Shown here: positions 37,185 to 61,265 of the stretch, in pieces | Position numbering within the stretch: the first letter of the stretch is position 1 | Layout of the letters: every line of letters starts with the position of its first letter | NCBI GenBank assembly: GCA_035555435.1 | Contig: DATMGN010000017.1 | Span: 10,775 to 74,774 of the forward strand | Source: Microbacteriaceae bacterium | Lineage (GTDB): Bacteria > Actinomycetota > Actinomycetes > Actinomycetales > Microbacteriaceae | DNA: 64,000 bases | Direction: 5' to 3' | Translations under genes and position numbers: made by a program | The notes under the pieces: generated by a model | What the model saw: the letters and a program-made list of their open reading frames with translations, nothing else | What the model was told of the DNA's origin: nothing | Databases searched by the model: none

Positions 37185-37187
37185 GAG

Positions 37188-39861: not shown

Positions 39862-39899
39862 ACTCGCGAGTACGCGCCATTAGTGCGCTCTGAATCGGG

Positions 39900-41118: not shown

Positions 41119-41204
41119 CCGCTTTCCCACGCATTACCGCGTGATCCGCACCTAACGCTTGCAATCCCAATCAAGGGAGGCAGTGATGTGTCCTGACTGC
41201 GAGC

Positions 41205-42658: not shown

Positions 42659-42716
42659 GCCCAGACCCTAGCGGCTGCCCCCACCCCGCGATAGACCGCA
42701 ATAGGGGGGAGACGAC

Positions 42717-42974
42717 ATGGCACACCCCAAATACACCGGCGCCTACCTAGCTATCCGCCGAGCCTGGTCCGCCGTCGTCGCACGCGGAGACGCAACCTGC
42801 CACGAGCCCATCTGCCTCATGCCCAATAGGGCGATAGCCCCAGGGTCACGTTGGCACCTGAGCCACGACACCACAGGCACACGCATCCTCGGCCCATCAC
42901 ACGCCCGATGCAACACCAGCGAAGGCGCAACACGAGGCAACGCCGACCGAGCTTCACGGTTCCTCAAGCTCTGA
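42717..42974 (+). CDS. HNH endonuclease (terminase-associated)
   Basis: 85 aa. CHEPICLMP...WHLSHD...HARCN. Immediately upstream of the large terminase. Confidence 0.7.
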   Translation: MAHPKYTGAYLAIRRAWSAVVARGDATCHEPICLMPNRAIAPGSRWHLSHDTTGTRILGPSHARCNTSEGATRGNADRASRFLKL

Positions 42975-43064
42975 CAACTCGCCAGATTCTTTTCATTTGC
43001 ATAGACCTGACGACCCCGCCATCTTCTTTTTGTGTGTGAGAGGTGATTTCTCATCGCCGACACG

Positions 43065-44558: not shown

Positions 44559-44566
44559 GGAGTGTC

Positions 44567-44710
44567 ATGCCTACGATCCTGCTCGAGCTCGTCGCTGTGC
44601 TCGCCCTTGTGGCGTTCGCTGTCGTTACGTGGTGGCCCGCCGCTCTTCTTGTCGTCGCGCTCAGCGCCGGTTTCGTTGCTTGGAATCTGAATCGGGAGGG
44701 TCGTCGATGA
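44567..44710 (+). CDS. small membrane protein (47 aa)
   Basis: MPTILLELVAVLALVAFAVVTWWPAALLVVALSAGFVAWNLNREGRR. ATGA overlap with portal. Confidence 0.4.
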   Translation: MPTILLELVAVLALVAFAVVTWWPAALLVVALSAGFVAWNLNREGRR

Positions 44711-45834: not shown

Positions 45835-46505
45835 CCGAAACCGAGCGTCGCCTCACCGTCGCGACCGTGGAGGTGCGCGCCGAGCAGACGCGCACTATCG
45901 GCGGCTACGCGGCGAAGTTCAACACCTTCTCGCAGAACCTTGGCGGGTTCATCGAGCGGATCGCCACGAGCTTCTTCAACAAGTCTCGTGGTGACGGGTG
46001 GCCGGGCGTGCTCGCCCGCTACAACCATGACGACAACATGCTGCTCGGCACGACTGCCGCGGACACGCTGCGGCTCGCGATCGACGACATCGGCCTGTCG
46101 TACGAGGTGGACGCGCCGGCAGCTCGCGCCGACGTGTTCGAGCTCGTGCAGCGCGGCGACGTCGCGAAGTCGTCGTTCGCGTTCAACGTGTTCGAGGACG
46201 ACTGGAGCGTGAACGAGTCCGGGTTCCCGATCCGCACCCTCATCTCGGGACGCCTCTACGACGTCGCCCCGGTGAACACCCCCGCATACGACGACACGTC
46301 GGTCGGGATCCGAGCGCTCGACTCGCTGGCTCGCAAGTTCGACTGCGACCTCGCCGAGATCCGCAACCTCGCCGCCGACCAGCGCCTCGGCGACCTGTTC
46401 GCGCCGCCCGCGATCGTTGTCGACTTGGCCCCTGCGCCAGTCGTCGCCGATAGCACTGAGCGATCGGCGCGCGCTGCACTCGCGAAGGCGCTCTCCCTCA
46501 CCTAG
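45831..46505 (+). CDS. prohead maturation protease (HK97/S78 family)
   Basis: ...IGGYAAKFNTFSQNLGGFIERI...ARYNHDDNMLLG...GDVAKSSFAF... Confidence 0.85.
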   Translation: MTETERRLTVATVEVRAEQTRTIGGYAAKFNTFSQNLGGFIERIATSFFNKSRGDGWPGVLARYNHDDNMLLGTTAADTLRLAIDDIGLSYEVDAPAARADVFELVQRGDVAKSSFAFNVFEDDWSVNESGFPIRTLISGRLYDVAPVNTPAYDDTSVGIRALDSLARKFDCDLAEIRNLAADQRLGDLFAPPAIVVDLAPAPVVADSTERSARAALAKALSLT

Positions 46506-46633
46506 TTCATACCTCCGAGCCGTATCGGGCAGCGACCACGCACCCGACCGGCCCGGCGCACCGAAACACCATCCGGCAGGGTCACCCCCACCGGGCATCG
46601 AAGCACTCAATCGATTCCCGGAAAGGGGAAACC

Positions 46634-47833
46634 ATGTCCACTCTTGTGGAGCAGCTGCGCGAGCAGCGCAGCGCACTCATCCAGAAGGCCACCGACATCG
46701 CTCAGGCGAGCGTCGCGGAGGGCCGCAACCTCACGGTCGAGGAGCAGGCGAGCTTCGACCAGATCATCGCGGACGCTGAGGGCCTCGGCCAGCGTGCCGC
46801 CGACCTCATCGCCGCGGAGCAGCGTTCGGCCGACATCGAGGCGTCGTTCATTCCGAGCGCGCAGCGTACGGCCCCGGATGGCTCCCCGCTCGGGGATTGG
46901 GCACGGTCGGCTCAGCCCGGTGCCGCGTTCGATCTGCGAGCGTCGCGACCGGGTCTGGAGAACCGTGCGATCGAGTCGTTCCGCCGCGGTGAGCAGCGGG
47001 CGATGACGATGGGCGGCACGTCCGCTGACGCGGTCTACTCGTCACTGTGGGAGACGGCGGTTTCGACTAGCCAGATCCTGCAGGCCGGCGTGCAGATCAT
47101 CACCACTCAGGACGGCAACACGCTGCCCATGCCCGCGGTGACCGCGCACGCGGTTGGCGCTTCGGCGGCGGCGAACGCTCCCGTCAGCGCGTCGGATGCG
47201 GGCCTGTCGCTCGTGAACCTGTCGGTGTCGAAGAACGGTTACCTGACGCTCGTCCCGTACGAGCTCACCCAGGACGCCACGTTCGATCTCGACGGTTACC
47301 TGTCGCGTGCGGCGGGTCGTGAGCTGGGCAACCAGATCAGCCAGATCGCAGCCTCTGCGCTCATCGCCGGGGCGACCGTGTCGGGTGCGACTGCGCCGAC
47401 CGCGTCGGTGGCGGCGTCGGGTGTGACGTTCACGAACGCGCTGAAGACGCTGTTCTGGGCCGTCGCGGGACCGTACCGCAACCAGGGCTCCTGGCTGCTG
47501 TCGGACGGTGCTGCTGCGGCGATCGACAAGATCACCGACGCGCAGGGCCGCTACGTACTCCAGCAGGACCTCACCGGGGCGTTCCCGTTCCGGCTCCAGT
47601 CCAAGCCCGTGTTCACGGATTACACGCTGCCGGCACCTACGGGCACCGCGAAGCCGATCTACTTCGGTGACTTCTCGGCGCTCGCGGTCCGCATCGCGGG
47701 TGGTATCCGGTTCGAGCGGTCGGCGGAGTACGCGTTCGGCAACGACCAGATCGCGTACCGGGCGCTCGTGCGTACGGGCGCGGCGGTCCTCGATGTGAAC
47801 GCGATCAAGTTCCTCGCGCTCACGGCGTCCTGA
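46634..47833 (+). CDS. major capsid protein (HK97 fold)
   Basis: 399 aa. N-terminal coiled-coil delta domain MSTLVEQLREQRSALIQKATDIAQ..., typical position. Confidence 0.85.
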   Translation: MSTLVEQLREQRSALIQKATDIAQASVAEGRNLTVEEQASFDQIIADAEGLGQRAADLIAAEQRSADIEASFIPSAQRTAPDGSPLGDWARSAQPGAAFDLRASRPGLENRAIESFRRGEQRAMTMGGTSADAVYSSLWETAVSTSQILQAGVQIITTQDGNTLPMPAVTAHAVGASAAANAPVSASDAGLSLVNLSVSKNGYLTLVPYELTQDATFDLDGYLSRAAGRELGNQISQIAASALIAGATVSGATAPTASVAASGVTFTNALKTLFWAVAGPYRNQGSWLLSDGAAAAIDKITDAQGRYVLQQDLTGAFPFRLQSKPVFTDYTLPAPTGTAKPIYFGDFSALAVRIAGGIRFERSAEYAFGNDQIAYRALVRTGAAVLDVNAIKFLALTAS

Positions 47834-47848
47834 GGGGGGTGACCTGAG

Positions 47849-48268
47849 ATGGCTATTGGTGACATCCGAGGTATCCCGAATCAGTACGTCATTGTCCTGA
47901 ACGGTGAGGACCGTTCCGGGGAGACGACGAGCTGCTCGATCGGCAGGTCGGGCAAGTCGTCGCAGACGTTCGCGGAGTACCGTTCCGGCGGGGCGAAGTC
48001 CCTCAAGGCGACGGTGCTGCAGAACTTCGCGACGGGCTCGATCTGGACCATGTCGACCACACCGTCCCTCATCGGAACGAGCGTGACCGGCATGTTCCTC
48101 CCGCAGGGGTCGGCATCGGGTCGTCCGAAGTTCACGGTGACCGCGACCATCGCTGCCCCGTCCTCTGACGAGTATGTCGGTGGCGACGGCGGGGAGTCGA
48201 CGGCGGACAACCCGACGATCGACATCGAGTGGCAGCTCGTCGGCGACTGGTCTCAGGCGACGATCTGA
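47849..48268 (+). CDS. hypothetical virion protein (139 aa), candidate major tail tube or head decoration protein
   Basis: Directly after the capsid gene and followed by a 13-bp perfect stem-loop. No tube-sized gene lies between the connectors and the chaperone. Confidence 0.35.
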   Translation: MAIGDIRGIPNQYVIVLNGEDRSGETTSCSIGRSGKSSQTFAEYRSGGAKSLKATVLQNFATGSIWTMSTTPSLIGTSVTGMFLPQGSASGRPKFTVTATIAAPSSDEYVGGDGGESTADNPTIDIEWQLVGDWSQATI

Positions 48269-48275
48269 TCAAGCC

Positions 48276-48313
48276 GGGAGTGGCGGGCGTCCGTGCCTTC
48301 GCCCGCCACTCCC
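48276..48313 (+). terminator. perfect 13-bp stem-loop GGGAGTGGCGGGC / GCCCGCCACTCCC
   Basis: Arms at 48276-48288 and 48301-48313, 12-nt loop, no U-tract. May act as an attenuator or RNA stabiliser. Confidence 0.5.
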
Positions 48314-48347
48314 TCTCAAGGCACTAAGGCACCCGAAGGGCATTCGC

Positions 48348-49325
48348 GTGACTGCACCTCTGCGAATCGCGGCCGTCGAAGATGGTACGGCTTGCGGTTA
48401 CTACAGAATCCGGCTCCCGTTCGAGGAGATGCGTAAGCACGGGCACGAGATGGAGTATGCGCGCACGGCCGAACAGTTTGACGAGTCGTGGCCGATCCTC
48501 GTGGCACAGCGTTTTGGTTATCCGGGGTTCGAGCTCGAGTGGTTGAAGCTGTTTCGGAAGCACGCAATGGTGTGGGAAACCGACGACGATCTTTGGGCGA
48601 TTGATCCGGTCAATAAGCGCGCCGCGGAGGTGTTCACCCGCGACTACCTCAAGGGTCTGGAGTTTTGCGTCCGCTCGGCTCGGCTCGTGACGGTGACGAA
48701 CGATCATCTGGCTGAGCGCATGTCGCGCTTCAACCCGAACGTCGCGGTCGTGCCGAACATGATCGACGCGGCCCTGCCGACCATGAATCGCGTTCGTCGT
48801 GACAAGGTCACGATCGGTTGGGCTGGCGGCGACTCGCATCGTCGTGATCTTGCAAGGATCGTTGCTCCCCTGCATCGGATTGTGCGGACTACAGCCGCGG
48901 TCGTGCACACGATCGGTCAGGACTTCTCTGACGTGTTGCGGCTGCCAGTTGATCGGCACCGGCACACCGGGTGGGAATCAAGGCTCATCAAATACTACTC
49001 GAGCCTCGATTTCGACATCGGCCTGGCACCGATCGAGAACACCACGTTTACCCGGTCCAAGTCCTACATCAAAGCGCTCGAATATGGCGCGCTCGGCATC
49101 CCGGTGATCGCCTCCGACGTCGGCCCGTACCGGGAGTACGTCGAGGACGGGGTGACCGGGTTCCTCGTGAGGAAGGAATCGGAATGGATCGACCGCATGC
49201 AACTACTGATCGACGATGCGGACTTGCGGGAGCGGATGGGTGCTGCTGCGCGCGAGAAAGCGACCAGGCACACGATTGCGGCCGGGTGGCCTCTTTGGGA
49301 GCAGGCGTACCGTCGCGTCGCGTGA
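48348..49325 (+). CDS. GT-B fold glycosyltransferase (GT1/GT4-like) within the structural module
   Basis: GTG 48348. ...SKSYIKALEYGALGIPVIASDVGPYREYVEDGVTGFLV... is the typical C-terminal donor-binding motif. Confidence 0.75.
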   Translation: MTAPLRIAAVEDGTACGYYRIRLPFEEMRKHGHEMEYARTAEQFDESWPILVAQRFGYPGFELEWLKLFRKHAMVWETDDDLWAIDPVNKRAAEVFTRDYLKGLEFCVRSARLVTVTNDHLAERMSRFNPNVAVVPNMIDAALPTMNRVRRDKVTIGWAGGDSHRRDLARIVAPLHRIVRTTAAVVHTIGQDFSDVLRLPVDRHRHTGWESRLIKYYSSLDFDIGLAPIENTTFTRSKSYIKALEYGALGIPVIASDVGPYREYVEDGVTGFLVRKESEWIDRMQLLIDDADLRERMGAAAREKATRHTIAAGWPLWEQAYRRVA

Positions 49326-49380
49326 CGTGGCCGCCGGCGACTGAGACTGCGGTGCCGCCGCGTCGTGAGGAGGTGCGCTG

Positions 49381-49716
49381 ATGGCCGTCACGTACCAGCA
49401 GGTACTCGCCGAGGCGGGTGCCGGCGCGAACGACAAGACGCTCGCGGAGCGTGTTCTCGCTGAGGCGGAGGAGCATGTTACTGACTTCCTCGCCGAGAAC
49501 CTGCTCGACGAGTCGCGTCCCGTGCCGTCTGAGGTTGCAGATTCGGCGGTGCTGCGCTGCGCGGTGGATTTGTTCGCCCGCGCGAATGCCCCGTTCGGCA
49601 CTCAGGTGCTCCCGGACGGGTCGGGGCAGATGATCGCCCAGCGTCTCGGCGCGGACCCGCTCGGCGGCGTGTATGCACTCGTGCGCGCATGGGCGGCAAG
49701 GGTCGGCCTCGGATGA
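49381..49716 (+). CDS. head-tail connector (gp6-like)
   Basis: 111 aa. Position and ...EHVTDFLAENLL...LRCAVDLFAR... pattern. Confidence 0.6.
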   Translation: MAVTYQQVLAEAGAGANDKTLAERVLAEAEEHVTDFLAENLLDESRPVPSEVADSAVLRCAVDLFARANAPFGTQVLPDGSGQMIAQRLGADPLGGVYALVRAWAARVGLG

Positions 49717-50153
49717 GCGACGAAGAGCTCCCGGACGAGACGCCCGAGGAGCCGCCGGCCCCGACGTCCGACCTGGCCTCTGCTCGTACTGCGCTCGCGA
49801 CACTGCTGAACTCGATCGAGGGTGTGCGCGCGGTCACCGAGATCCCGAAGACGTTCACCCCGCCGATCGTGTGGATCGCCGCGGGTCTGCCGTATCGTCA
49901 GCGGGCGCAGGCGATCGGCCGTAAGCGCATCAACCTCGTCGCGGTGTGCCTCGGTGGGATGTCTACGAACGACGCGTCCCTCGCTGCTACAGAGGAGCTC
50001 GCCGAGCTCGTCGCCGACAAGGTCGACACGTCCACCGTGTTCGCGTTGGACCCGACCGCCGAGATGGATCAGCCGCGCCTCTACCCGTCGGCGCAGAACC
50101 AGGAGATGCTCGGCATCGCCGTCAACATCATGTGCGAGTCCACTCGTGGTTGA
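49713..50153 (+). CDS. head-tail joining / tail completion protein (DUF3168-like)
   Basis: 146 aa. ATGA overlap. ...IPKTFTPPIVWIAAG... Confidence 0.5.
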   Translation: MSDEELPDETPEEPPAPTSDLASARTALATLLNSIEGVRAVTEIPKTFTPPIVWIAAGLPYRQRAQAIGRKRINLVAVCLGGMSTNDASLAATEELAELVADKVDTSTVFALDPTAEMDQPRLYPSAQNQEMLGIAVNIMCESTRG

Positions 50154-50646
50154 CATCGAGTGGAACACGAAGCAGCTGGCGGCGCTCGCAAAGTCGATGC
50201 AAGCCGACCGCGACGGGCGTGCGCTGCGGAAGCAGATGAACGCCCAGTTCGACTCGATCACTGAGGACCTCCGCGATCGGCTCTACCGGGGCGTGAGCTC
50301 CCTTCCCGGTGTTGGTTCGTACTCACGGGATTTGGCCGAGTCGGTGCAGTTCAAAACGAAGCTCATCGGTGGCAAGAACGCTCGCGTGTCGATCGTCGGT
50401 ACTGGCAAGACCGCGAAGGGTAAGACCCGCGAGACCGGCAAGCTCCTCGAGGCCGGTTACTTGTACCACCCGGCATGGGGCTACTGGCGGTCGAGTCCAC
50501 CACCTGCGAGCTTGCGCCAGCAAGTCCCTGCGGGTCCCCGAATGGTGACCGATGCGCTGAGCCGTTCCGAACCGAACGTCCGCTCGGAGATCCTCTACGT
50601 CCTGAATGACTACCTCGATCGACTCACTGAAATACGAAAGGCATGA
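50146..50646 (+). CDS. HK97 gp10-like neck/tail component
   Basis: GTG 50146. 166 aa. Position before the chaperone. Confidence 0.5.
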   Translation: MVDIEWNTKQLAALAKSMQADRDGRALRKQMNAQFDSITEDLRDRLYRGVSSLPGVGSYSRDLAESVQFKTKLIGGKNARVSIVGTGKTAKGKTRETGKLLEAGYLYHPAWGYWRSSPPPASLRQQVPAGPRMVTDALSRSEPNVRSEILYVLNDYLDRLTEIRKA

Positions 50647-50933
50647 CCATGAGCAAGACCCTTACTGCTAACGAAGTGTCCGAGTCCCTCACCGGCTTCG
50701 ATGAGATCGCGATCAAGCAGCAGTTCGGCGGCACGATCCGCACTCTCACTCAGGAAGATCCGACTCAGTACATGCGCGCACTCGTGTTCGTTCTCGAGCG
50801 TCGTGCCGGCAAGAAGGATGCGGAGGCGTACCACGTCGCCCAGTCCATGTCGCTGATCGAGGTCAAGGACCGGCTGCCGCAGGAGGACGCGAACGCGGAT
50901 TTCGACGAGCAGCCGACTACGACGACGCCCTGA
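50643..50933 (+). CDS. tail assembly chaperone (G-like)
   Basis: 96 aa, acidic. Immediately upstream of the tape measure gene. Confidence 0.65.
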   Translation: MTMSKTLTANEVSESLTGFDEIAIKQQFGGTIRTLTQEDPTQYMRALVFVLERRAGKKDAEAYHVAQSMSLIEVKDRLPQEDANADFDEQPTTTTP

Positions 50934-51073
50934 CGATCGCCTACTGGTGCGCGGCGACCGGGCAACCGGCGTCGTCATGGTTCACCCTCGACCGTCTTCA
51001 ACGGCACGCGTTCCTTGATGTCGCGAAAGAGATCGCCGACGAACGCAAGAAAGCGGCTAAGCGTAGGAGGTGA
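50933..51073 (+). CDS. -1 frame extension of the tail assembly chaperone (GT-like product)
   Basis: 47-codon open frame (TIAYWCAATGQPASSWFTLDRLQRHAFLDVAKEIADERKKAAKRRR) with no in-frame ATG/GTG/TTG. Ends 3 nt before the tape measure start. Confidence 0.55.
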   Translation, partial: TIAYWCAATGQPASSWFTLDRLQRHAFLDVAKEIADERKKAAKRRR

Positions 51074-51076
51074 CCC

Positions 51077-53110
51077 GTGGCGAAAGACGTCCAGATTGAT
51101 CTGATCGTTGATCCGAAGAAGGCGATCAAGGGAATCGACGACGTTTCGGATCGGGCCGAAACAGCCTCCAAGGTCCTCGCTGGTCTCGGCGGGTTCGCTG
51201 CGGGCGCACTCGCGGTCGGTGCGGCGGGTGCTGCAGCGCTCGGCGGCGCGGTCGTGTCGGCGTATGCGGACTTCGAGCAGCTCGCTGGCGGTGTCGACAA
51301 GCTGTTCGGTGACGCGTCGGATTCGGTCATGGAGTACGCGTCGCGCGCTGCGGAGTCGGCGGGTCTGTCGACGAACCGCTACTTGGACACGGTCACGTCG
51401 TTCAGCGCGTCCCTGATCTCCGGTCTGGGCGGCGACCAGGCGAAGGCCGCGCAGATCGCGGACATCGCGATCACCGACATGGCCGATAACGCGAACACGT
51501 TCGGCACGTCGATGGAGATGCTCCAGACGACGTATCAGGGCTTCGCCAAGGGCCAGTTCGCGATGCTCGACAACCTCAAGCTCGGCTATGGCGGCACGGC
51601 CGGTGAGATGGCGCGCCTCATCAACGACTCCGGTGTGCTCAACGGTGCGTTCGAGGTGACCGCGCAGAACGTCAAGGACATTCCGTTCTCGACGATGGTC
51701 GAGGCGATTCACCAAGTCCAGACCGAGCTCAACATCACGGGCACGACGGCGAAGGAAGCCGCGTCGACGATCACTGGATCGTTCGAGGCGACCAAGGCGT
51801 CGCTCATGAACCTCGTCACTGGTCTCGGCGACGCGAACGCGGACTTCGATGCGCTCGTGAGCAGTCTCGCGACGAACGCCGGGAACCTCATCGCGAACGT
51901 CGCTGGGGTGCTCGAGCAGCTCGCGACCGGTCTGCCGCAGATCGTTCCGACGTTGCTCGCCGCGGTGGAGAAGCTCGTCCCGACGCTCCTCGAGGTCGGC
52001 GCGAGGCTCGTCGAGGCGGTCCTGGATGGCCTGATCAAGATGGCACCGGCACTGATCAGTGGAGCGGTCCCCCTCATCCTCAATCTCGTCACCGGTCTGC
52101 TGCGGCAGGTCCCCGCGCTCCTGACGGCGGGTGTGCAGATCGTCGTCGCGGTCGTGCAGGGCATTGCCCGGGCCCTACCGACGTTGATCCCGTCGGTCGT
52201 GAAGGCGATCGTCAACGGCATTCTCACGTTGACGTCGCCAACCAATCTGAACGCACTGCTCAAGGCGGGCCTCGGGTTGGTGACGGGACTCGTCAAGGGC
52301 ATCATCACGGCGTTGCCGATCATCATTGACGCACTGCCGACGATCATTCTCAACATCGTCAACTTTATTGTGGGCGCGATTCCGCAGCTGATTGATGCGG
52401 GTATTCAACTGTTCATGTCGATCGTTGCCGCTTTGCCGGACATCATCCACGGCATTGTTGCCGCGATTCCGAAGATCATCGTCGGCATCACGACCGCGTT
52501 GGTCGAGGCGATCCCGGCGCTCATCACGGGCGGGATCGAACTGTTCGTCGCGCTCATCGCCGAGCTGCCGACCATCATCGTCGAGATTGTTAAGGCGATT
52601 CCCGAGATCGTGGTCGGCATTGTCACGGCGTTCACGAAGCCGGAGACGATGGCGCGGATGGCGCAGGCCGGTATGAGTCTCATTCAGGGCCTCATCGACG
52701 GTATCGGCAGCATGGTCGGAGCGGTCGTGAAGTCTGTTGAGGATGTTGCGAACAGCATCGTCGGGGGCATCGCGGACTTCCTGGGCATCCACTCGCCGTC
52801 GACTGTGTTCGCGGACATTGGTCGTTACTCGATCATGGGCCTAGAGAAGGGTCTGAGTGGTCGGAACAACATCAGCTCGATCATGGGGAAGCTCTCCGGG
52901 CAAGTTGCTGGTGGTTTCGCTGGGGCCCTTGCGGCGGATGCGAAGATCACGGTCGCGCGTTCCTACGGTGCGGCGGACGAGTCCAGTGTCACCGCCCCAC
53001 GCTCGATCACTGTGAACAACACGTACAACGTGGGCGATCAGGATCCGCGTCTCGTGGGTCGTCAAGCTGGCCGTGAGGTCATGCGTCAGTTGGCTGGGGT
53101 GCTGGTGTGA
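51077..53110 (+). CDS. tape measure protein
   Basis: 677 aa. Ala/Gly/Leu/Ile-rich helical repeats. Position after the chaperones. Confidence 0.88.
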   Translation: MAKDVQIDLIVDPKKAIKGIDDVSDRAETASKVLAGLGGFAAGALAVGAAGAAALGGAVVSAYADFEQLAGGVDKLFGDASDSVMEYASRAAESAGLSTNRYLDTVTSFSASLISGLGGDQAKAAQIADIAITDMADNANTFGTSMEMLQTTYQGFAKGQFAMLDNLKLGYGGTAGEMARLINDSGVLNGAFEVTAQNVKDIPFSTMVEAIHQVQTELNITGTTAKEAASTITGSFEATKASLMNLVTGLGDANADFDALVSSLATNAGNLIANVAGVLEQLATGLPQIVPTLLAAVEKLVPTLLEVGARLVEAVLDGLIKMAPALISGAVPLILNLVTGLLRQVPALLTAGVQIVVAVVQGIARALPTLIPSVVKAIVNGILTLTSPTNLNALLKAGLGLVTGLVKGIITALPIIIDALPTIILNIVNFIVGAIPQLIDAGIQLFMSIVAALPDIIHGIVAAIPKIIVGITTALVEAIPALITGGIELFVALIAELPTIIVEIVKAIPEIVVGIVTAFTKPETMARMAQAGMSLIQGLIDGIGSMVGAVVKSVEDVANSIVGGIADFLGIHSPSTVFADIGRYSIMGLEKGLSGRNNISSIMGKLSGQVAGGFAGALAADAKITVARSYGAADESSVTAPRSITVNNTYNVGDQDPRLVGRQAGREVMRQLAGVLV

Positions 53111-53946
53111 TCATCGAACTGGCGGGTATCACGTTCGCGGATTCAGGTCGTGGTTGGGTGTTCGCCGATCTCGTGGACTGGTACACGGTTCCCGACTCGA
53201 AGGCAGAAGATGAGTCGATTCCGCAGGGTCATGGGTCGTTTGATCCCGGCGTGGATTGGCGGTCTTCGGCGGCGATTTCGTTCACGGCTGCGTATATCGG
53301 CAACTCAGCAGCGGAAGTACTTGAGGCGGTCGAGGAGTTCAACTCTGCCGGGACGTCTGAGGACATCCAGGTCATGCGCGTCACTGATGTGTTGCGGGCG
53401 ACGAGTCGGCAAGTATCGATCCGCCGTATCGGTGTACCAGACTTCTATAACTACGACTCGTTCGAAGCACAGTTCGCGGTGGATGTGCTCGCGTGGGATC
53501 CGCTGCGGTATGGCGATCCTGTAGTCACAACTACGGGTTTGCCGTCCTTGTCGGGTGGTCTCGCGTTCCCGATTGTGTTCCCGATTGATTTCGCGTCGGC
53601 TGGTGATCCGGGGCGCCTGGTCTTGACGAACGCGGGTAAGCAGCCATCGCGGCCGCAGTTCACAGTGACGGGTGGGTTGGCTGGCGGGTTCTCGCTGGTC
53701 TGTATTGAGACGGGGCAGGAGATCCGTTTCGAGTTCCCGCTGTCGGTCTCGGACGTCGTGACAGTGGATGCTCGGTCGGGTCAGGCGTGGATCAATGACG
53801 AGTCGAATGTCCTCTCGGGCTACCTCACAAAGTCGGAGTGGTTCCCAGTGCCGGCTGGTGGGGTGCGGACGGTGCAGTTCAATGCGATCGGCGCGGTCAC
53901 GGGGACGCCGACGTTGACGGGCATTGTGTCCCCGGCTTGGTTGTGA
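53107..53946 (+). CDS. distal tail protein (Dit-like)
   Basis: 279 aa. GTGA overlap with the tape measure stop. Confidence 0.65.
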   Translation: MIIELAGITFADSGRGWVFADLVDWYTVPDSKAEDESIPQGHGSFDPGVDWRSSAAISFTAAYIGNSAAEVLEAVEEFNSAGTSEDIQVMRVTDVLRATSRQVSIRRIGVPDFYNYDSFEAQFAVDVLAWDPLRYGDPVVTTTGLPSLSGGLAFPIVFPIDFASAGDPGRLVLTNAGKQPSRPQFTVTGGLAGGFSLVCIETGQEIRFEFPLSVSDVVTVDARSGQAWINDESNVLSGYLTKSEWFPVPAGGVRTVQFNAIGAVTGTPTLTGIVSPAWL

Positions 53947-53953
53947 GGTTGTC

Positions 53954-55204
53954 GTGGAGGTTGTGACGCGGGTTCTGATCGGGGATCTGCTGACGGGGCG
54001 TCGCATTCTCGATATTCCGTACTCGAAGTTGTCGTGGAGTGTGTCGCGGAATGCGGCCGAGTCGATCAGCTTGACGGTGCCGTTGACGTCTCGTCTGGTG
54101 CGTCGGTTGGATTTGCGCAACGCGACGACGCCGGCGAAGACGTTCATGGCGGTCTTGTTGGATGATGTGCCGATTGCGGCGGGTCCGATTTGGCGTCGCC
54201 AGTATGCGAAGGCGACCGGGTTGTTGGATCTCGCGGCGGCGGGCATGTGGTCGTATTTCGATCACCGGCACATCATTCCGGCATTGGCTGCATCGCAGGG
54301 TGTGGTGGATCCGGTGACGGGTGAGTCGATCAACGACACGGTCTTGACGAATCTGTCGTACGGGACGATCGCGAAGCGCATCGTGCAGCAGGCTCGCACT
54401 TGGACGGGCGGCAACGTGCCGATCGTGTTCCAGGATGATGAGGCTGGAACGTACACGCGCACCTATTTGGGTGCGACGCTCAAGAAAGTTGGCGAAGCCC
54501 TCGCGGACTTCATCGACTTGAGGAACGGCATCGACATTCGCTTCCAGCCGCGGTTCACGTCGGACCGGCTTGGCATCGAATGGGTGTTGCAGACCGGGAC
54601 TCTCACGCAGCCGTATCTTCGTTCCCCGCAGGTGCATCGTTGGGATTACACGGTCCCGAAGCCGTCGATCCGGAACCTGTCCGAAGTGGAGGACGCGTCT
54701 CGGATGGCGGGGCTCGCGTGGTTCACGTCGGGCCGTCAGGAGGGTACGGCCCTCGCGGTCCAGTCCTCAGATGGTGTGCTGGCGGGTGCGGGGTATCCGC
54801 TGCTTGAACTCGCGGATGCGTCCCATTCGGATGTGACGATCGAAGCGACGTTGCAGGAGTATGCGGACAACGCGATCCTCCTGGGTCGGGCACCGATGTC
54901 GGCGTGGTCGTTCGAAGCGAAAGCGTCGGGCAGTCCGCGTGCGGGCCAGTATTGGCCGGGCGATCTTGCGGAGATCCTGGTTGGCGATGATCCGTGGCTC
55001 GGAAACCGTTGGGGCACGACGGTGCCGACCGATCTTCTGCCAGCCCCGGACCTGTATCCGTCCGATGATCTCCTCCCGGATGGTGGGTCGTTCTATTTCC
55101 CACCGAAGCCGGTGACGCATGTGCGGGAGATCGCGTCGATCTCGGGGGATGAGAAGAGCCGTTGGGTTTCCGTTGTGACCGAAGAGCAGATTGAGGTGAG
55201 CTGA
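53954..55204 (+). CDS. tail tip / baseplate hub minor tail protein (Tal-like)
   Basis: GTG 53954 after GAGG. ...RVLIGDLLTGRRILDIPYSKLSWS... Confidence 0.6.
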   Translation: MEVVTRVLIGDLLTGRRILDIPYSKLSWSVSRNAAESISLTVPLTSRLVRRLDLRNATTPAKTFMAVLLDDVPIAAGPIWRRQYAKATGLLDLAAAGMWSYFDHRHIIPALAASQGVVDPVTGESINDTVLTNLSYGTIAKRIVQQARTWTGGNVPIVFQDDEAGTYTRTYLGATLKKVGEALADFIDLRNGIDIRFQPRFTSDRLGIEWVLQTGTLTQPYLRSPQVHRWDYTVPKPSIRNLSEVEDASRMAGLAWFTSGRQEGTALAVQSSDGVLAGAGYPLLELADASHSDVTIEATLQEYADNAILLGRAPMSAWSFEAKASGSPRAGQYWPGDLAEILVGDDPWLGNRWGTTVPTDLLPAPDLYPSDDLLPDGGSFYFPPKPVTHVREIASISGDEKSRWVSVVTEEQIEVS

Positions 55205-56499
55205 TGCCGTTCGATCCGATCGTCTTCGCGGACCGTAGTAAGCCGGCGTTGAATGCGGCCGCGCTCGCGCATATGCAGACGCAGTACGACCAGGCTGTTG
55301 CGGATGCTGCTACGGCAGCAAATGCCGCATATGGGCAGGTGTTCCAGGTGTCGGCATACGAGACGATCCACGCCGCCTATGCGGCTCTCGTCAGCGCGGG
55401 CGGCGGCACGCTTCAGATTCGTGGTGACGTTTCCGTGGAAACCGATTTCATTATGAGCGAGAACGTGACATGCCTGGTTGATGGGTACGGAGGGCGGCTC
55501 CTTCCTGCGCCGGGTGTCATCGCCCTCGGCATGGAAGTTGGACCATCCGACGTGACGTTGATTGCCGTCGAGGGGCTCGAGATCGATGCCACCAACCAGG
55601 GCGGAACGGCGGGTGGCGCAACCGGAATCCGAGTGAAGGACCACCTCGGCGCAGTGATCCGCGACGTTGTTATCAAGCAGTGCGCGACAGGCATCCTCAT
55701 CACCGATAGCCCCGGAAAGTGGTCGGAGTCATCCCAGCTCGATGCCGTCCGTATCGAGGAATGCGCGATCGGGATCGACGTGCAGAACGACGGCGGCACT
55801 GGATCATTCGGCTATGCCGGTTGGGGGCGCGTCGCGATCTACGGTGTCCCCGAAGGCGGCGTCGGCTTCCGTGTCGGTGCTGGCGCAAACCTATACCACT
55901 TCACGCTCGCGCGGCTCGTGGTGCAGACGTCAGGCGCCGTCGCGTCGGGCACCGCGACCCTTATGGAAGTCGCTGGAGTCATCCGACGCGACAGTACGAT
56001 CAACGCTGTATTTGAGTCCTCGGCCTCAGCATTCTCGGGCACCCGAAACGGCCTGGCGCTCGTCTCGGGCGCGACCATCGACGGCCTGGGCCTCCGTGCC
56101 TATTTTCAAGGCACGTTCACGAACAAGATCTACAACCCCGCGACAGTCGCATTCCAGTTCCGCGAGGACAACGACCGCGACTTGAAGGCCAGCGCCTCCG
56201 GGCAAGACCTCGCCGACTATTGGGTGTTCGGCGACGCATTCGCGCGGACGATCATGAGACCCGGCCGCATCATGCTGGGGTCCGGCGCGGCGGCCCCGGA
56301 CGCGCAGATTGTGCGCTGGGGCCCCGACCTGGCGGGGCCGGACACGGGCGACTCATGGCGTGTCGACGGCACCTGGAACGGCGGCAATCTCCGCCTCGGC
56401 AACTACCGGCTATGGGTCGACGCATCAGGGAATCTTCGCATCAAGTCCTCGGCCCCGTCCTCGGATATGGACGGCACGGTAGTCGGCGCTCAGTCCTGA
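55204..56499 (+). CDS. minor tail protein with right-handed beta-helix (pectate-lyase-like) domain, candidate depolymerase
   Basis: 431 aa. ...GGGTLQIRGDV..., ...IRVKDHLGAVIRDVVIKQCATGILITDS..., repeated GxxI/V turns. Confidence 0.6.
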   Translation: MPFDPIVFADRSKPALNAAALAHMQTQYDQAVADAATAANAAYGQVFQVSAYETIHAAYAALVSAGGGTLQIRGDVSVETDFIMSENVTCLVDGYGGRLLPAPGVIALGMEVGPSDVTLIAVEGLEIDATNQGGTAGGATGIRVKDHLGAVIRDVVIKQCATGILITDSPGKWSESSQLDAVRIEECAIGIDVQNDGGTGSFGYAGWGRVAIYGVPEGGVGFRVGAGANLYHFTLARLVVQTSGAVASGTATLMEVAGVIRRDSTINAVFESSASAFSGTRNGLALVSGATIDGLGLRAYFQGTFTNKIYNPATVAFQFREDNDRDLKASASGQDLADYWVFGDAFARTIMRPGRIMLGSGAAAPDAQIVRWGPDLAGPDTGDSWRVDGTWNGGNLRLGNYRLWVDASGNLRIKSSAPSSDMDGTVVGAQS

Positions 56500-56579
56500 C
56501 AAGACCGGTTATCTGCCCCACTCGGCGAGCTCGGAAGTCTCGTCGAGTTCGTTGCTTTCCTTCCGTGAGGAGCAGATCG

Positions 56580-57257
56580 ATGCCACGTAGAGGACTGCCC
56601 GAGGAGGGCGCGGGTGAGATCGCTGCCGTGTTCAAACGGCAAGATCGCCGTCTTCGCATGTTGGAGATGCCGACTGGGGAGCAGTTGGCTCGTGCGCTGG
56701 AGAAGGTCCAGCAACTCATCACGGATCTGCCGGGACTGGTTGCAGCAGCAGCGACGTCGTTCCTGTCGACCGGCTTCACGACGGGGAGTATGACGGCGAC
56801 GGGGGATGTGACGTCCGCCACGGGCACTGTCACCGGGGCATTCCACAACCCGAACATCATCACGAACCAGATCACCACCCCGCGCACGAGCGTGTGGGCG
56901 CAGGACTCGGACGGGCTACTCGGCTGGGCGTCGTCGTCGCGCACGCAGAAGGACAACATCCGGGATTCCGGCGTCGACCCCCGCGCAGTGCTTCAGATCA
57001 GCTCTGTCTTGTTCAACTACAAAGCCGAGCTCGAGAAGCACGCCCTCGACCCCGAGTACGTCGTCGCCGACGAGTTCGGCGCGATCGCTGAGGATCTCCA
57101 CGACCTCGGGCTCGGCGTCGTCGTCGACTACTGGCCTGACGGGTCACCGCGAGGCATCAACTACACGATGCTCGGACTGCTCGCAGTCGAAGCCGCGAAG
57201 CACCTCGACGCGCGGCTGACTGCGGTTGAGGGTCGTCTGGACGCTGCGGGGCTCTAG
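56580..57257 (+). CDS. tail fibre protein with C-terminal S74 intramolecular-chaperone peptidase domain
   Basis: ATG 56580 after GAGGAG. ...LGWASSSRTQKDNIRD...INYTMLGLLAVEAAKHLDARL... Confidence 0.65.
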   Translation: MPRRGLPEEGAGEIAAVFKRQDRRLRMLEMPTGEQLARALEKVQQLITDLPGLVAAAATSFLSTGFTTGSMTATGDVTSATGTVTGAFHNPNIITNQITTPRTSVWAQDSDGLLGWASSSRTQKDNIRDSGVDPRAVLQISSVLFNYKAELEKHALDPEYVVADEFGAIAEDLHDLGLGVVVDYWPDGSPRGINYTMLGLLAVEAAKHLDARLTAVEGRLDAAGL

Positions 57258-57631
57258 TCCTCAAGCCACGCGACGCACTGATCGCCCTCGCCGTACTTCA
57301 CGCACTGTTGGCCTTGGTCGTTCAGATCGTGGCAGTTCGACTCGTTGCCGTACTCGTCCACGTGGTTGGCGATCGTCCCTTCCGGGCATAGCACCGGCTG
57401 GGGTGGCACCTCGACCTGGACCGGTTCAGGCGCTGGCACGGCGACCTCGACGACCGGTTCCGGCGTCGGAGTCGGTGTGGCCTTCGGTGCGGGGGTGACT
57501 TCCGCGATCTGAACCACGGTCGGGGTCGGTTCCGGTGCTGGGGTTTGCCCGCCGAGCGCGAACGCGGTCGCACCCGCGGCGATGACCAACGCACCACCAC
57601 CGGCAATACCGCCGATCAGCCAACGATTCAT
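57254..57631 (-). CDS. reverse-oriented membrane-anchored Pro-rich / Cys-rich protein (moron)
   Basis: MNRWLIGGIAGGGALVIAAGATAFALGG, Pro/Thr/Glu/Val linker, C-terminal CPEG...NCHD...QCVKYGEGDQC. Start may be GTG at 57652. Confidence 0.6.
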   Translation of the reverse strand: MNRWLIGGIAGGGALVIAAGATAFALGGQTPAPEPTPTVVQIAEVTPAPKATPTPTPEPVVEVAVPAPEPVQVEVPPQPVLCPEGTIANHVDEYGNESNCHDLNDQGQQCVKYGEGDQCVAWLED

Positions 57632-57674
57632 GCGGCCGAGTGTACGCCGCACTCACGACAAGAGGGAGTACCCA

Positions 57675-58835
57675 ATGACGCTAGGTGATGGTTTCCCCGC
57701 CGGTAGCGGCACCGTCGACTCGACCGAACTGCGGAAGGCCCTCGCCGGACTAATCCTGCGGGACACGTCCGGGAACGCTCGCGCAGGCATCTTCCCTGCA
57801 CACACGTCCGCGCTCGTCACGGCGAAGGCATCCATGGCGGTCGACGTCGCCGCGTTCACTGGCTGCACGGTGCGTGGTGGTGGTCCGATCTTCATGGCGA
57901 ACGACGGCACCGTCACCGTCAGTGTCGATGCGGCACCTGGATCGAACTCCCGCATCGATGTCGTCTACTTCAAGCAGAACGAGTCCGCCTCCCCGTATTC
58001 GGATGCGAATGACAATCCGGTCTTCGGGGTGGAGAAGGGCACCGCGGGCGCTGTCCCGGTGAAGCCCACCATTCCCACGGGTGCGGTCGAGCTTGCAACG
58101 ATCCTCATCCCGTCCGGGGTGTCGGCGACGAACGCAGGCGGCGTGGTCATCACGCAAACATTCCCGTTCACCGCAACCACAGGCGGACCCATCTGGGTCC
58201 GCAACGCAACCGAACGCGGCGCACTCAGCACCTACCCGGCAGGCACCCGAGTACGGCAACTCGACACTGCACACACGTACGAAAGCAACGGCACGGTATT
58301 GACCACCGTCGAGGCCGAAACACGGATCCTGCCCACGTCAGTCGCCGGCACGGGTGTGACGTTGGACACGGCAGCCGCCATCGTCGCGTTCACCGCCTCG
58401 TCCTCGATCTCCATCAACGGATGCTTCACCGCGGAGTTCAACGAGTACCGGATCATCATCGACATCGCGTCGGCTTCAGCAGGCGCATCGATTACGTTCC
58501 GCTTCCGCGCGTCTGGCACTGACCTGTCCTCATCCTCCTACTCGCAGCTCATCGAAACTGTGTCCGGTACGTCGATCGCGGTCACCTCGCCAGCCACTGC
58601 GACCTCCGGCCGGTTCGGTCAAACCCAGACCACCGGAGCGCACATTGTGGCCAGGGTGACCCGTCCTGCTTCCACCGCGAACCCGAAGCTCGCATACGGC
58701 GACACGGACGACCCGACCCCAGTGAAGCAGCGCGTGACGAACTCGATCGCCTCGGCCACGTCGTTCGACGGAATCACGATCATTCCGTCTACGGGGAACA
58801 TCACTGGAACCGTTCGCATCATCGGAATCCGCTAG
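57675..58835 (+). CDS. minor tail / receptor-binding protein
   Basis: ATG 57675 after AGAGGGAG. 386 aa, Thr/Ser/Gly/Ala-rich beta-type sequence. Confidence 0.6.
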   Translation: MTLGDGFPAGSGTVDSTELRKALAGLILRDTSGNARAGIFPAHTSALVTAKASMAVDVAAFTGCTVRGGGPIFMANDGTVTVSVDAAPGSNSRIDVVYFKQNESASPYSDANDNPVFGVEKGTAGAVPVKPTIPTGAVELATILIPSGVSATNAGGVVITQTFPFTATTGGPIWVRNATERGALSTYPAGTRVRQLDTAHTYESNGTVLTTVEAETRILPTSVAGTGVTLDTAAAIVAFTASSSISINGCFTAEFNEYRIIIDIASASAGASITFRFRASGTDLSSSSYSQLIETVSGTSIAVTSPATATSGRFGQTQTTGAHIVARVTRPASTANPKLAYGDTDDPTPVKQRVTNSIASATSFDGITIIPSTGNITGTVRIIGIR

Positions 58836-59488
58836 TGCGAATCCAGCTACTCCGACCAGCACCGGGACACGTTTCGACGACGTTCGCGGAACATGCGGCC
58901 CGTGCTGTTGTCTACCTGTTCTGCGGCATTGACTTCGGCTGGTCGACGTCGGCGGACTGGCGAGTCACAGCTGCCACATCTGGTCGAGTGATCTTCGCCG
59001 GCTACTCCGGCAAGGACTACGGCAACCTCGTCGTCATCGACCACGGCAACGGGATCACGACCTGGTATGCCCACCTCGACTCGTTCACCGTGACAGTCGG
59101 TCAGATGGTCGTCGCCGGACAGCACCTCGGCGTGATGGGTTCCTCCGGGAACGCCAAGGGACGGCACTTGCATTTCGAGTTGCGGATCAACGGTGTGCAG
59201 GTCGACCCGGAACCCTATTTCGTCAACTCAATCCTCGATTTGGAGAAGGCCATGTATGCAGTTCGGAACAAGCGTGGGTCGATCTGGCTCATCTCGGGTG
59301 GTTCGGTTGTCGTGCCGATGAACGGGGCCCAGTGGGCGGCGGTCGGTAAAGCGTTCCCTGGTCTGCCGCTCGTCCAGTTCGACACTGACGCTGACGCTGA
59401 CAAGTTCGTAGCGTCATTCGCCGGCTCGACGAGTGTGACGCAGTTCACGTTGGTGCCGTCCGGTCAGATCGACCTCGTCGCGAAGTAG
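58835..59488 (+). CDS. M23 family metallopeptidase endolysin
   Basis: ...GNLVVIDHGNGITTWYAHL...GSSGNAKGRHLHFELRINGVQVDP... Confidence 0.85.
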   Translation: MRIQLLRPAPGHVSTTFAEHAARAVVYLFCGIDFGWSTSADWRVTAATSGRVIFAGYSGKDYGNLVVIDHGNGITTWYAHLDSFTVTVGQMVVAGQHLGVMGSSGNAKGRHLHFELRINGVQVDPEPYFVNSILDLEKAMYAVRNKRGSIWLISGGSVVVPMNGAQWAAVGKAFPGLPLVQFDTDADADKFVASFAGSTSVTQFTLVPSGQIDLVAK

Positions 59489-59497
59489 GAGGAACCC

Positions 59498-59755
59498 ATG
59501 TCTGAGATCATCCCCAGTCCGGTGAAGCTTGCTGCGAAGCGCGCGTTCATCCGCACACTCGCGCAGGGGTACGCGACCACACTCGGCGGCACGGTCGTGT
59601 CGGTGCCGATCATCCTCGGACTCATCCAGGGCACGGAAGCATGGGTGCCGATCATCGTCGCCGTCGCCGTCGCTGTCGTGTCGCCGTTCATCGGTGCTGC
59701 GGCCGCGTACTTCGGAATGCTGCGCGACGGCATCCCCGACGAGTACAAGGGCTGA
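59498..59755 (+). CDS. holin (two TM)
   Basis: 85 aa. ...GGTVVSVPIILGLI...WVPIIVAVAVAVVSPFIGAAAAYF. Follows the lysin. Confidence 0.65.
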   Translation: MSEIIPSPVKLAAKRAFIRTLAQGYATTLGGTVVSVPIILGLIQGTEAWVPIIVAVAVAVVSPFIGAAAAYFGMLRDGIPDEYKG

Positions 59756-59757
59756 GC

Positions 59758-59991
59758 GTGAGCGAGGGTCTCGCGGTCGCGATCATCTCCGCGATCGTCG
59801 TGGCGGGCGGCGCGGGGCTGACGTTCATCACGACGCAGCTCGTACGCCTCAACCGCCGGATCCAGAAGCTCGAGAAACGCGACCGTCTCTCGTGGCTGTA
59901 CATCCGCTCACTGATTGATCACGGCTATAAGCACGCCCCGCACGTTCCGCTGCCTGAGCCGCCCGAAGGTTGGCTCGAAGACACTGAGTAG
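59758..59991 (+). CDS. single-TM lysis-cassette membrane protein
   Basis: GTG 59758. VSEGLAVAIISAIVVAGGAGLTFITTQLVRLNRRIQKLEKRD... Confidence 0.5.
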   Translation: MSEGLAVAIISAIVVAGGAGLTFITTQLVRLNRRIQKLEKRDRLSWLYIRSLIDHGYKHAPHVPLPEPPEGWLEDTE

Positions 59992-60005
59992 CATCTGCAC
60001 GACAT

Positions 60006-60049
60006 CGCCCCGCGCGACTTGACTTCGGTCGGTCGCGCGGGGCGTTTTT
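60006..60049 (+). terminator. rho-independent terminator of the late/lysis operon
   Basis: 13-bp perfect stem CGCCCCGCGCGAC / GTCGCGCGGGGCG followed by TTTTT. Confidence 0.8.
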
Positions 60050-60109
60050 CGTGTTCCCGGACAAAGCCGCTTGTTAGGACGCTCCCCGCGCCCGACCGTG
60101 CGGTATGAG

Positions 60110-60184
60110 TGGAGCCCTCGGTCAGGATTGAACTGACGGCCTTCCCATTACGAGTGGGATGCTCTACCACTGAGCTACGAGGGC
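60110..60184 (-). tRNA. phage-encoded tRNA-Thr (anticodon CGT), CCA encoded
   Basis: Manual cloverleaf: GCCCTCG-TA-GCTC-AGTGGTA-GAGC-A-TCCCA-CTCGTAA-TGGGA-AGGCC-GTCAG-TTCAATC-CTGAC-CGAGGGC-T-CCA. All four stems are fully paired. Confidence 0.92.
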
Positions 60185-60197
60185 GCGGTCCACGATC

Positions 60198-61052
60198 CTA
60201 CGCGGCGAGGCGTTCCGTTTCCAACTCGGCGGGGAGTTGCAGCACGTTGCTCGCCTCCTGCATCTTCCAGCCGCTGACGAGCGTGTAGATCTGCGTCGAC
60301 TGCACCGACTCGTGGCGCATCATCTCCTTCACCACGATCACGTCGATACCGTTCTCTAGGAGTTCGGTGGCGTGGTAGTGGCGCAGCGAATGAGGGGTGC
60401 TCCTGACCCCGGCGACGACCATCACATGGTGAATGGATGAGTGGACGGCTTTGCGGCTGACGTGCGGACTGTCGCCCTGGTAGGCGGGAAACCATAGGCC
60501 CTCACGCGGGAACCCGGCATTGGTCGCGTAGTCCTCCACGACGTGGCTGAGCGGAATCGGTTTTGTCTTCCCACCCTTGGACGGCACCCATACGACGCGC
60601 GCACCCCAGTCGATCCATGAGCCGTCGAACGCGGCGATCTCGAACGTGCGTAGGCCCATGAACGCGGCGAGGAGGATCATCATCCGCCCGCGTCGGCGCT
60701 TCACATGCGCGAGCATCGCGGCGAGCTGCGCGGGGGAGACGGGGTGGGGCACACCCTTGGGTCGGCTCATCACCGGCACTTCGTCCATCGGGTTCGTGCG
60801 CCGACGCTTAGACGCGACGAGCCACGCACAGTAGGACCGGAGTGCGGTTTGGTATGTCCACCGGGTGACGGCTGCGAGTCCTTTGCGTCCAAGGAATGCG
60901 ATGAGTTGCGCGGACGTGAACTTGAGCGGGTGCGCGCCGGAGAACGCGATGAACTGGCGCAGGATTCGCTCGCGTTCGGTGATGGTTCGTTCGCTCAGAT
61001 GTTTGACCTGTTGCCAGGCGCGCCAGTCGGCGCAGACGCGGTCAACGTGCAT
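60198..61052 (-). CDS. int: tyrosine recombinase / phage integrase
   Basis: 284 aa. ...HSLRHYHATELLENG...VQSTQIYTLV (HxxR...Y). C-terminus ...ELETERLAA. Confidence 0.92.
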   Translation of the reverse strand: MHVDRVCADWRAWQQVKHLSERTITERERILRQFIAFSGAHPLKFTSAQLIAFLGRKGLAAVTRWTYQTALRSYCAWLVASKRRRTNPMDEVPVMSRPKGVPHPVSPAQLAAMLAHVKRRRGRMMILLAAFMGLRTFEIAAFDGSWIDWGARVVWVPSKGGKTKPIPLSHVVEDYATNAGFPREGLWFPAYQGDSPHVSRKAVHSSIHHVMVVAGVRSTPHSLRHYHATELLENGIDVIVVKEMMRHESVQSTQIYTLVSGWKMQEASNVLQLPAELETERLAA

Positions 61053-61226
61053 GGGTCCTCCCTCGGGTCGGCGGATGTCAGGAGGCTAGGTCGGCGCGGC
61101 ATAGCGACACACGCCCAATAGGGGGGTTAGATTCGGGACCGCCCGCTCAGATGGGGTCCAGGACCTCTATGCGACCCGTGATCCGATCCAGGGTCCGATA
61201 GCGACCTCTCGGGGAGTGGTGGCCTT
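61053..61226. promoter_or_regulatory. attR phage arm (P arm of attP) with short repeats
   Basis: WWGCGACM at 61101, 61169 and 61198. GGTCC-A-GGACC palindrome at 61155-61165. GGGTCC at 61053, 61154 and 61191. Confidence 0.35.
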
Positions 61227-61265
61227 GTAATGAGAAGGTCGTGGGTTCGATTCCCACAGGCGGCT
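61227..61265 (+). pseudogene. 3' half of host tRNA-Thr(CGT) (attR core plus anticodon-stem 3' strand, variable loop, T arm, acceptor 3' strand)
   Basis: GTAA-TGAGA-AGGTC-GTGGG-TTCGATT-CCCAC-AGGCGGC-T. AGGCGGC pairs with GCCGCCT at 25304-25310 and TGAGA with TCTCA at 25330-25334. Confidence 0.85.

Follow-up and report, generated by a model that had tools for sequence, protein, structure and literature searches.

The question raised by this locus is whether a phage integrase carries its own degradation signal, and what such a signal would do in the gene cassette around it. The integrase gene (int) lies at the right end of a prophage in a 64,000-nucleotide (nt) stretch of Microbacteriaceae bacterium DNA (contig DATMGN010000017.1, positions 10,775 to 74,774), called the window below. 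The initial annotation of the window had noticed that the predicted integrase (Int) ends in -RLAA, had likened this ending to the ssrA tag, and had placed the gene in a circuit of integration-dependent immunity, with the phage attachment site (attP) inside the repressor gene (rep); each of these points was borne out. The ending is probably a genome-encoded, ssrA-like C-terminal degron on the Int of an integration-dependent immunity cassette. Degradation of Int, the identity of the protease and the effect on phenotype are inferred from studied phages, and by the same analogy the enzyme acting on Int would most likely be a host AAA+ protease, ClpXP.

The int open reading frame (ORF) starts with an ATG (61052-61050) preceded by a GGGAGG Shine-Dalgarno sequence, and its translation runs to ...LQLPAELETERLAA (...PAELETERLAA), followed directly by a TAG stop codon at 60198-60200. 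The protein matches the integrase family PF00589 in Pfam (8.9e-21), and its catalytic residues R135, K159, H221, R224, H247 and Y256 are invariant in an alignment with 28 relatives (alignment A1). A SAM-like core-binding domain is matched weakly at the N-terminus of this protein of only 284 amino acids. The AlphaFold2 (AF2) model has a mean predicted local distance difference test (pLDDT) score of 92.3. Because exactly this protein is encoded by eight contigs from several samples, all of them in the integrated form or broken within tRNA repeats, an assembly artefact was rejected as the source of the ending. The E. coli and mycobacterial ssrA tags end in the same Leu-Ala-Ala, and a free C-terminal -LAA, the feature of ssrA-type degrons, is present on Int. 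Since the ssrA tag is added by trans-translation, whereas the Int tail is encoded in the ORF and not added by transfer-messenger RNA (tmRNA), the tail is ssrA-like rather than an ssrA tag; the residues upstream of LAA (ETER) are unlike the remainder of that tag, and recognition by ClpX in this host is putative. No tmRNA gene was found by ARAGORN in the window.

Within the window, 2 of the 211 six-frame ORFs of at least 100 amino acids end in -AA, and -LAA is found only on the int ORF. The survey of related Int C-termini that the initial annotation had called for gives a similar contrast at a larger scale. The protein ends in -AA in 21 of 41 database homologues of Int, in 40 of 75 distinct Int tails from viral-contig loci in IMG/VR, and in 35 of 150 best representatives of clusters formed at 50% identity (68 of the 150 end in Ala), against 3.9% (50/1279) of the six-frame ORFs from the same loci and about 1.1% expected from composition, Ala making up 10.7% of the Int relatives. 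The viral-contig relatives were gathered by an alignment-based search; a single-sequence search gave one locus. The enrichment is also specific to position, as the AA dipeptide occurs 40 times at the terminus of the 75 tails but 0-5 times at each of the 29 preceding positions. In alignment A1 the conserved fold extends to Y256 and is followed by an 'AIxxLxLP' segment, by a spacer of 0 to about 45 residues, and then by a terminal (R)(L/R)AA. Among the five closest relatives the spacer differs while the end is kept (ELETERLAA, ELESQRRAA, ELESGRLAA, LEDTPRAA and FEQTRLAA). A terminal AA that is enriched, position-specific and retained while the spacer changes is the pattern expected for selection on the extreme C-terminus, and the family-wide survey is independent evidence suggesting such selection. 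The same-strand ORF directly upstream of int, which is repressor-like and unrelated to Int, likewise ends in -AA in 22 of 45 viral-form IMG/VR loci, so that an architecture with two tags is common in this integrase family; these upstream ORFs often encode a tRNA T-arm peptide, for example GESNPRPIHYQ. As a separate observation, a longer tail motif, ...P.RSGR(R/L)AA, is seen in a subgroup of the integrases (IMG/VR loci L017, L026, L034, L039, L048 and L057; proteins P0030, P0031, P0034 and P0060) and may represent an extended recognition element.

The neighbourhood of int was compared with features taken from described cassettes of integration-dependent immunity (PMC9934374, PMC9262239, PMC3694055). 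The core sequence shared by the attachment sites, GTAATGA, lies inside the rep ORF, within codons for H-Y near its end; the prophage form of rep is found at the left attachment site (attL) and its 3' remnant at the right one (attR), 174 nt separating int from the crossover core. The stop codon of the prophage form, TGA (25332-25334), is supplied by the host, since it lies within the 5' half of a host tRNA-Thr gene, one codon (Glu, 25335-25337) past the core. Both rep and int are on the minus strand, a Cro-like gene of the HTH_17 type is divergent from them, and attL and attR taken together imply that rep and int are neighbours in the phage form. Joining the phage halves of the two sites (predicted attP junction ...GGTGGCCTTGTAATGATGAGGACCAG...) extends the rep frame to ...HHYKATTPREVAIGPWIGSRVA, a protein of 118 amino acids whose stop lies 114 nt before the int ATG. 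The protein in the Cro position has an excisionase-type HTH_17 fold, as in Brujita gp35. What is missing is a long core that rebuilds the host tRNA: the core has 7 bp here, and in all described members a common core of 25-45 bp rebuilds the tRNA (PMC9262239).

Int and Rep are homologous to proteins of the described members. Among annotated relatives of Int the top match is WST1, followed by Brujita, Island3 and other cluster I phages; in pairwise comparison Int is 40% identical to that of Brujita (5e-58), 39% to that of Charlie (7e-59) and 29% to that of BPs (4e-14), and Rep shares 36% identity with Brujita gp34 (E 1e-18). Integration-dependent immunity was described in three types of phage, those of BPs, Brujita and Charlie (PMC3694055). 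When one residue at the C-terminus of BPs Int is substituted, the protein is stabilised, integration increases and integrated plasmids are destabilised (PMC3694055), and BPs repressor stabilised by the substitution A135E gives more lysogeny (PMC4557955).

Several observations weigh against the tail of Int being a degron within such a circuit. In the GenBank records the experimentally studied BPs has Int ending in -VAGF and Rep in -KAS, and about half of the Int relatives are without terminal -AA; for both reasons the definition of the tag is loose. In the records of the other two types the tails are -LSAA (Int) and -EHAA (Rep) for Brujita and -SAVS (Int) and -DSAA (Rep) for Charlie, and -RLAA is nearer to canonical ssrA than any of the tails of the three types. 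The reconstructed viral repressor ends in -GSRVA, that is in the -SRVA given by the initial annotation, rather than in -AA; Rep of a Brujita-like relative (L024) likewise ends in -RVA. The predicted attP junction of the free phage was unmatched in viral contigs, so the viral repressor stays a reconstruction. The sole match to this junction in metagenome contigs (L101) was rejected as due to chance, since it lies in an unrelated contig of low guanine plus cytosine (G+C) content without int, rep or tRNA. Finally, AF2 places residues 275-283 of Int in a helix (pLDDT 66-79) and not in a clearly disordered tail, with confidence dropping to 81, 79, 76 and 66 toward the end; as a helix modelled with moderate confidence, this is not decisive for exposure of the tail.

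The diversity of endings among relatives would also suit a first alternative, namely that -LAA is a functionless by-product of an alanine-rich proteome in a genome of about 70% G+C. It is, however, hardly probable that composition is the cause, because terminal AA reaches 23-53% in the relatives, is concentrated at the terminus itself and is retained while the spacer varies in both sequence and length; a chance ending was rejected on the statistics of enrichment and position. Selection on the terminus might act for another reason than turnover. C-terminal segments of other tyrosine recombinases contact the neighbouring protomer, and in MuA the C-terminal handle for ClpX serves remodelling and not destruction; the short AF2 helix and the conserved 'LxLP' segment ahead of the tail would agree with such a role in recombination. 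A spacer between fold and AA that varies from none to some 45 residues is nevertheless a poor fit to a fixed structural contact, and the same ending on the unrelated repressor ORFs of these cassettes can be accounted for by a shared degron but not by recombinase mechanics. Together with the stabilising substitution in BPs Int, these points make a purely structural or remodelling role rather unlikely, if somewhat less so than an effect of composition.

The third alternative takes int for a chromosomal recombinase of the XerC/XerD type or for a dead remnant, whose tail would be irrelevant to a phage switch. Some relatives are indeed named 'integrase/recombinase XerD' in their source annotations, and the N-terminal SAM-like domain is matched weakly. 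Against this, int stands next to the crossover core at the attR end of a complete-looking 36-kb prophage, all its catalytic residues are intact, its best annotated relatives are phage integrases, and a second prophage with different tail genes has the same int-tRNA unit at the same site. Xer identity was rejected on its attR position, relatives and catalytic residues, and this alternative as a whole is very improbable. The ssrA-like degron thus stays the preferred explanation of the -RLAA ending. The features on which the argument draws are collected in Table 1.

Table 1. Positions of the integrase gene, its tail and the associated phage and host features in the window.
Feature	Position	Strand	Basis
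int, tyrosine integrase of 284 amino acids without arm-binding domain	60198..61052	-	ORF; Pfam PF00589; alignment A1; AF2
Codons R281-L282-A283-A284, C-terminal R-L-A-A, putative ssrA-like degron	60201..60212	-	ORF translation; terminal -AA enriched and position-specific in relatives
Phage tRNA-Thr(CGT), CCA included in the gene, 13 nt past the int stop	60110..60184	-	ARAGORN; Rfam 71.2 bits
rep 3' remnant, in frame, encoding KATTPREVAIGPWIGSRVA and a stop at 61167-61169; predicted tag of the viral-form repressor	61167..61226	-	attP reconstruction; same remnant in L086/L087
Prophage-form repressor rep, 100 amino acids, HTH_31, ending ...GPHHYE	25332..25634	-	ORF; Pfam; Brujita gp34 homology
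Cro-like gene, HTH_17/MerR-type, divergent from rep (alternative start TTG 25728)	25764..25952	+	PF12728, 7.7e-15; position as Brujita gp35
Host tRNA-Thr(CGT) 5' part ending in the attL core GTAATGA (25338-25344)	25304..25344	+	Identity of 94-98% with intact tRNA genes elsewhere (45-50 nt)
Common core GTAATGA (7 bp) at attR	61227..61233	+	Junction comparison
Displaced host tRNA-Thr(CGT) 3' part: 3' anticodon stem, T arm, acceptor strand	61234..61265	+	Identity to intact genes
Prophage body, about 35.9 kb	25345..61226		Composition; PHROGs; att junctions

The attachment sites disclose a further consequence of integration, missed by the initial annotation: the loss of the host tRNA-Thr(CGT), together with a phage-borne replacement. 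At the left junction the 5' half of the tRNA gene runs up to ...CTCGTAATGA, and at the right junction ...CTTGTAATGA is followed by the 3' half of the same tRNA, which gives a partial Rfam tRNA match at 61219-61265. The bacterial attachment site (attB) rebuilt from the host halves of attL and attR has the junction ...CACTCGTAATGAGAAGGTC..., which is absent from the window and has exact matches in 13 Microbacteriaceae genomes (Leifsonia, Pseudolysinimonas, Agromyces, Arenivirga and Schumannella), once per genome, a complete chromosome among them, and always inside an intact tRNA-Thr(CGT) gene. To these genes the 3' part is identical over 40-42 nt in 9 of the 13 genomes and has one mismatch in the other 4; the 45-50 nt compared at attL comprise the 5' half of the tRNA and a few upstream bases. 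The TetR and DUF3500 flanks of the prophage showed no synteny around intact attB in other genera.

The hybrid left at attL does not look like a working tRNA. No tRNA was found there by ARAGORN, and the hybrid scores 29.1 bits against the Rfam tRNA model (cut-off 29), a score that comes from the 5' half and a retained acceptor strand, AGGCGGT. Its T arm is replaced by 27 unrelated nt, its anticodon loop has 10 nt, and it does not fold as a cloverleaf (z -0.66), whereas the rebuilt host tRNA and the phage tRNA (a clean cloverleaf, z -2.8) fold well. The host tRNA-Thr(CGT) is split in the anticodon loop by integration, and because the core is short a functional tRNA is predicted not to be rebuilt. 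With no rebuilt host tRNA, its function would have to be taken over by the phage tRNA-Thr(CGT), and the tRNA beside int is predicted to be that phage-borne replacement. In the phage DNA next to attL within rep (25345-25384), AGGCGGT matches the 3' strand of the host acceptor stem at about the right distance, and looks like a fossil of an ancestral long core that restored the tRNA.

The same arrangement is found in a second prophage (L086 1364-2730, L087 1-1370), which has different tail and lysis genes but the same split tRNA and attR junction, and adjoins the same DUF3500 gene of the host. The Int of this second prophage shares 88% identity and ends in -RRAA, and the tRNA-Thr(CGT) after int is identical. 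The unit of attP, int and tRNA therefore appears to travel from one phage backbone to another. At the nucleotide level the int coding regions of the two prophages are 72-94% identical, and the non-coding stretch from the rep remnant to the int start and the stretch across the tRNA with its 3' flank are 99-100% identical (61020-61170 and 60070-60170); these stretches flanking int may contain regulatory or Int-binding sequences, or recombination boundaries.

A comparable order is seen in a viral contig of about 54% G+C (L055, 2496-3870), where rep with a -GAVAA tail is followed by int with a -VELL tail and by tRNA-Arg(TCT) 8 nt past the int stop. The 3' end of this rep contains ATTCTAATCC, which resembles the anticodon region of tRNA-Arg(TCT) with an 8-nt match, and has no T-arm sequence, which hints at a second lineage joining integration-dependent immunity with tRNA-dependent lysogeny. 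In two further relatives, L026 and L045, a tRNA directly follows int; they were set aside because they have no upstream rep.

The proposed mechanism starts with the free phage, in which rep (118 amino acids, -SRVA), int (-RLAA) and probably the tRNA would be read leftwards as one unit, and a host AAA+ protease, most probably ClpXP, would hold down the levels of both Rep and Int. Where enough Int survives, it would join attP by recombination, over the 7-bp overlap, to the host tRNA-Thr(CGT) gene within its anticodon loop. This recombination would remove the tail of the repressor and leave the 100-residue prophage form (-HHYE), which would be stable and confer immunity, and ongoing degradation of Int would thereafter keep excision rare. 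The phage tRNA-Thr(CGT) beside int would replace that of the host. A broader reading, that the unit of rep, attP, int and tRNA fuses integration-dependent immunity with tRNA-dependent lysogeny, so that one recombination in the anticodon loop both stabilises the repressor and makes the cell depend on the phage tRNA, is put forward tentatively, as a possibility that falls short of being likely. As part of it, int in the lysogen may be, and may need to be, co-transcribed with the tRNA, because the tRNA begins 13 nt past the int stop and no separate promoter was detected; if int is co-transcribed with an essential tRNA, it would be the -RLAA degron, and not a lack of transcription, that holds down Int and stabilises the prophage. 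Scans for promoter and terminator consensus sequences around int and the tRNA and around rep and the Cro-like gene found none, actinobacterial signals being poorly covered by such scans.

The survey and the cassette would extend the lysogeny device based on an unstable integrase from mycobacteriophages to uncultured Microbacteriaceae prophages, and they indicate that a terminal -AA is widespread and position-specific across this integrase family. The cassette further suggests that integration-dependent immunity can drop the long tRNA-restoring core in exchange for a phage-borne replacement tRNA. If this is true, a self-contained module of about 2.2 kb couples immunity, integration and host dependence, and could be used as an integration vector or a synthetic switch in actinobacteria of high G+C content.

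The remainder of the prophage bears out its phage nature. Between roughly 25.3 and 61.2 kb the G+C content is about 0.63, compared with about 0.71 in the flanking DNA, and PHROGs matches comprise RecE/RecT, the large terminase, portal, protease, major capsid, tape measure, Dit and an M23 lysin; by its predicted genes the element is a siphovirus-type, complete-looking prophage. In the intergenic region between rep and the Cro-like gene (25635-25763), repeated words resembling (A)TGCAAC / GTTGCAT lie near both start codons and are candidate operator half-sites. The early region contains two likely DNA methyltransferases, recognised by motifs in the translations only: one is of the C5 type with PPCQ and the other has SPPY (30627-31352 and 33050-34201), and an HNH-like ORF lies between them (31133-32065).

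Among known systems, the cassette is closest to those of Brujita (gp33 Int, gp34 Rep, gp35 Cro-like) and Charlie (gp34 Int, gp35 Rep), whose Int proteins are 39-40% identical to that of the prophage over about 97% of the length. As in these phages, rep, attP and int follow one another leftwards and a MerR/HTH_17 gene diverges from them, the 3' end of rep contains the core, a tRNA gene contains attB, and Int and, putatively, the viral-form Rep have tails of the -AA type. In viral-form relatives of the Brujita type, however, the 3' end of rep encodes the tRNA T arm (GESNPRPIHYQ), by which the tRNA is rebuilt, whereas here 27 unrelated nt stand in place of the T arm and only 7 bp are shared; the phage tRNA after int and the host, Microbacteriaceae instead of Mycobacterium, are further differences. 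With BPs (gp32 Int, gp33 Rep) the prophage shares a Rep that is shorter in the prophage than in the viral form (103 versus 136 amino acids in BPs, 100 versus 118 here), a stop codon taken from host DNA and, by prediction, the tagging of both proteins (PMC4557955, PMC9262239). It differs from BPs in that Int is only 29% identical and that the 35-bp core of BPs restores tRNA-Arg (PMC9262239).

The tRNA part of the cassette resembles tRNA-dependent lysogeny, described for Fionnbharth, LeBron, Cain, BrutonGaster, Mollymur and Gaia (Guerrero-Bustamante and Hatfull 2024, PMC10865867). Here too a tyrosine integrase acts at an attB within a host tRNA gene, the common core is short (7 bp, against 8-17 bp in the published phages), no functional tRNA is predicted to be rebuilt, and a tRNA of matching anticodon, here tRNA-Thr(CGT), is encoded by the phage; in Gaia, too, the phage tRNA is found downstream of int. 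The integrases of the published phages belong to other families, however, and the Fionnbharth Int aligns over 110 amino acids only (E 1e-5); attP does not run through the repressor gene in the published phages, and an excise gene is annotated in Fionnbharth. Integration-dependent immunity and tRNA-dependent lysogeny are presented as two separate systems in the 2024 paper (PMC10865867) and in a 2025 overview. In a limited search, no description was found in the literature of a single cassette with a short, non-restoring core in the repressor gene and a cognate tRNA beside a tagged int.

The nearest precedent is provided by the tandem M. abscessus prophages prophiT36-2a/2b, which have integration-dependent immunity at a tRNA-Thr attB (Amarh et al. 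2023, PMC9934374). As in the present locus, the tRNA at attL is thought to be impaired, and prophiT36-2b has its own tRNA-Thr(cgt). In the tandem prophages, however, the core is long, the tRNA is rebuilt with two acceptor-stem mismatches, the phage tRNA lies about 2 kb from attR, and compensation was proposed between two prophages, whereas here a single prophage splits the anticodon loop and has its tRNA 13 nt after int. The Int tail is a further case of a known device, and the cassette joins two published mechanisms and is new as a combination.

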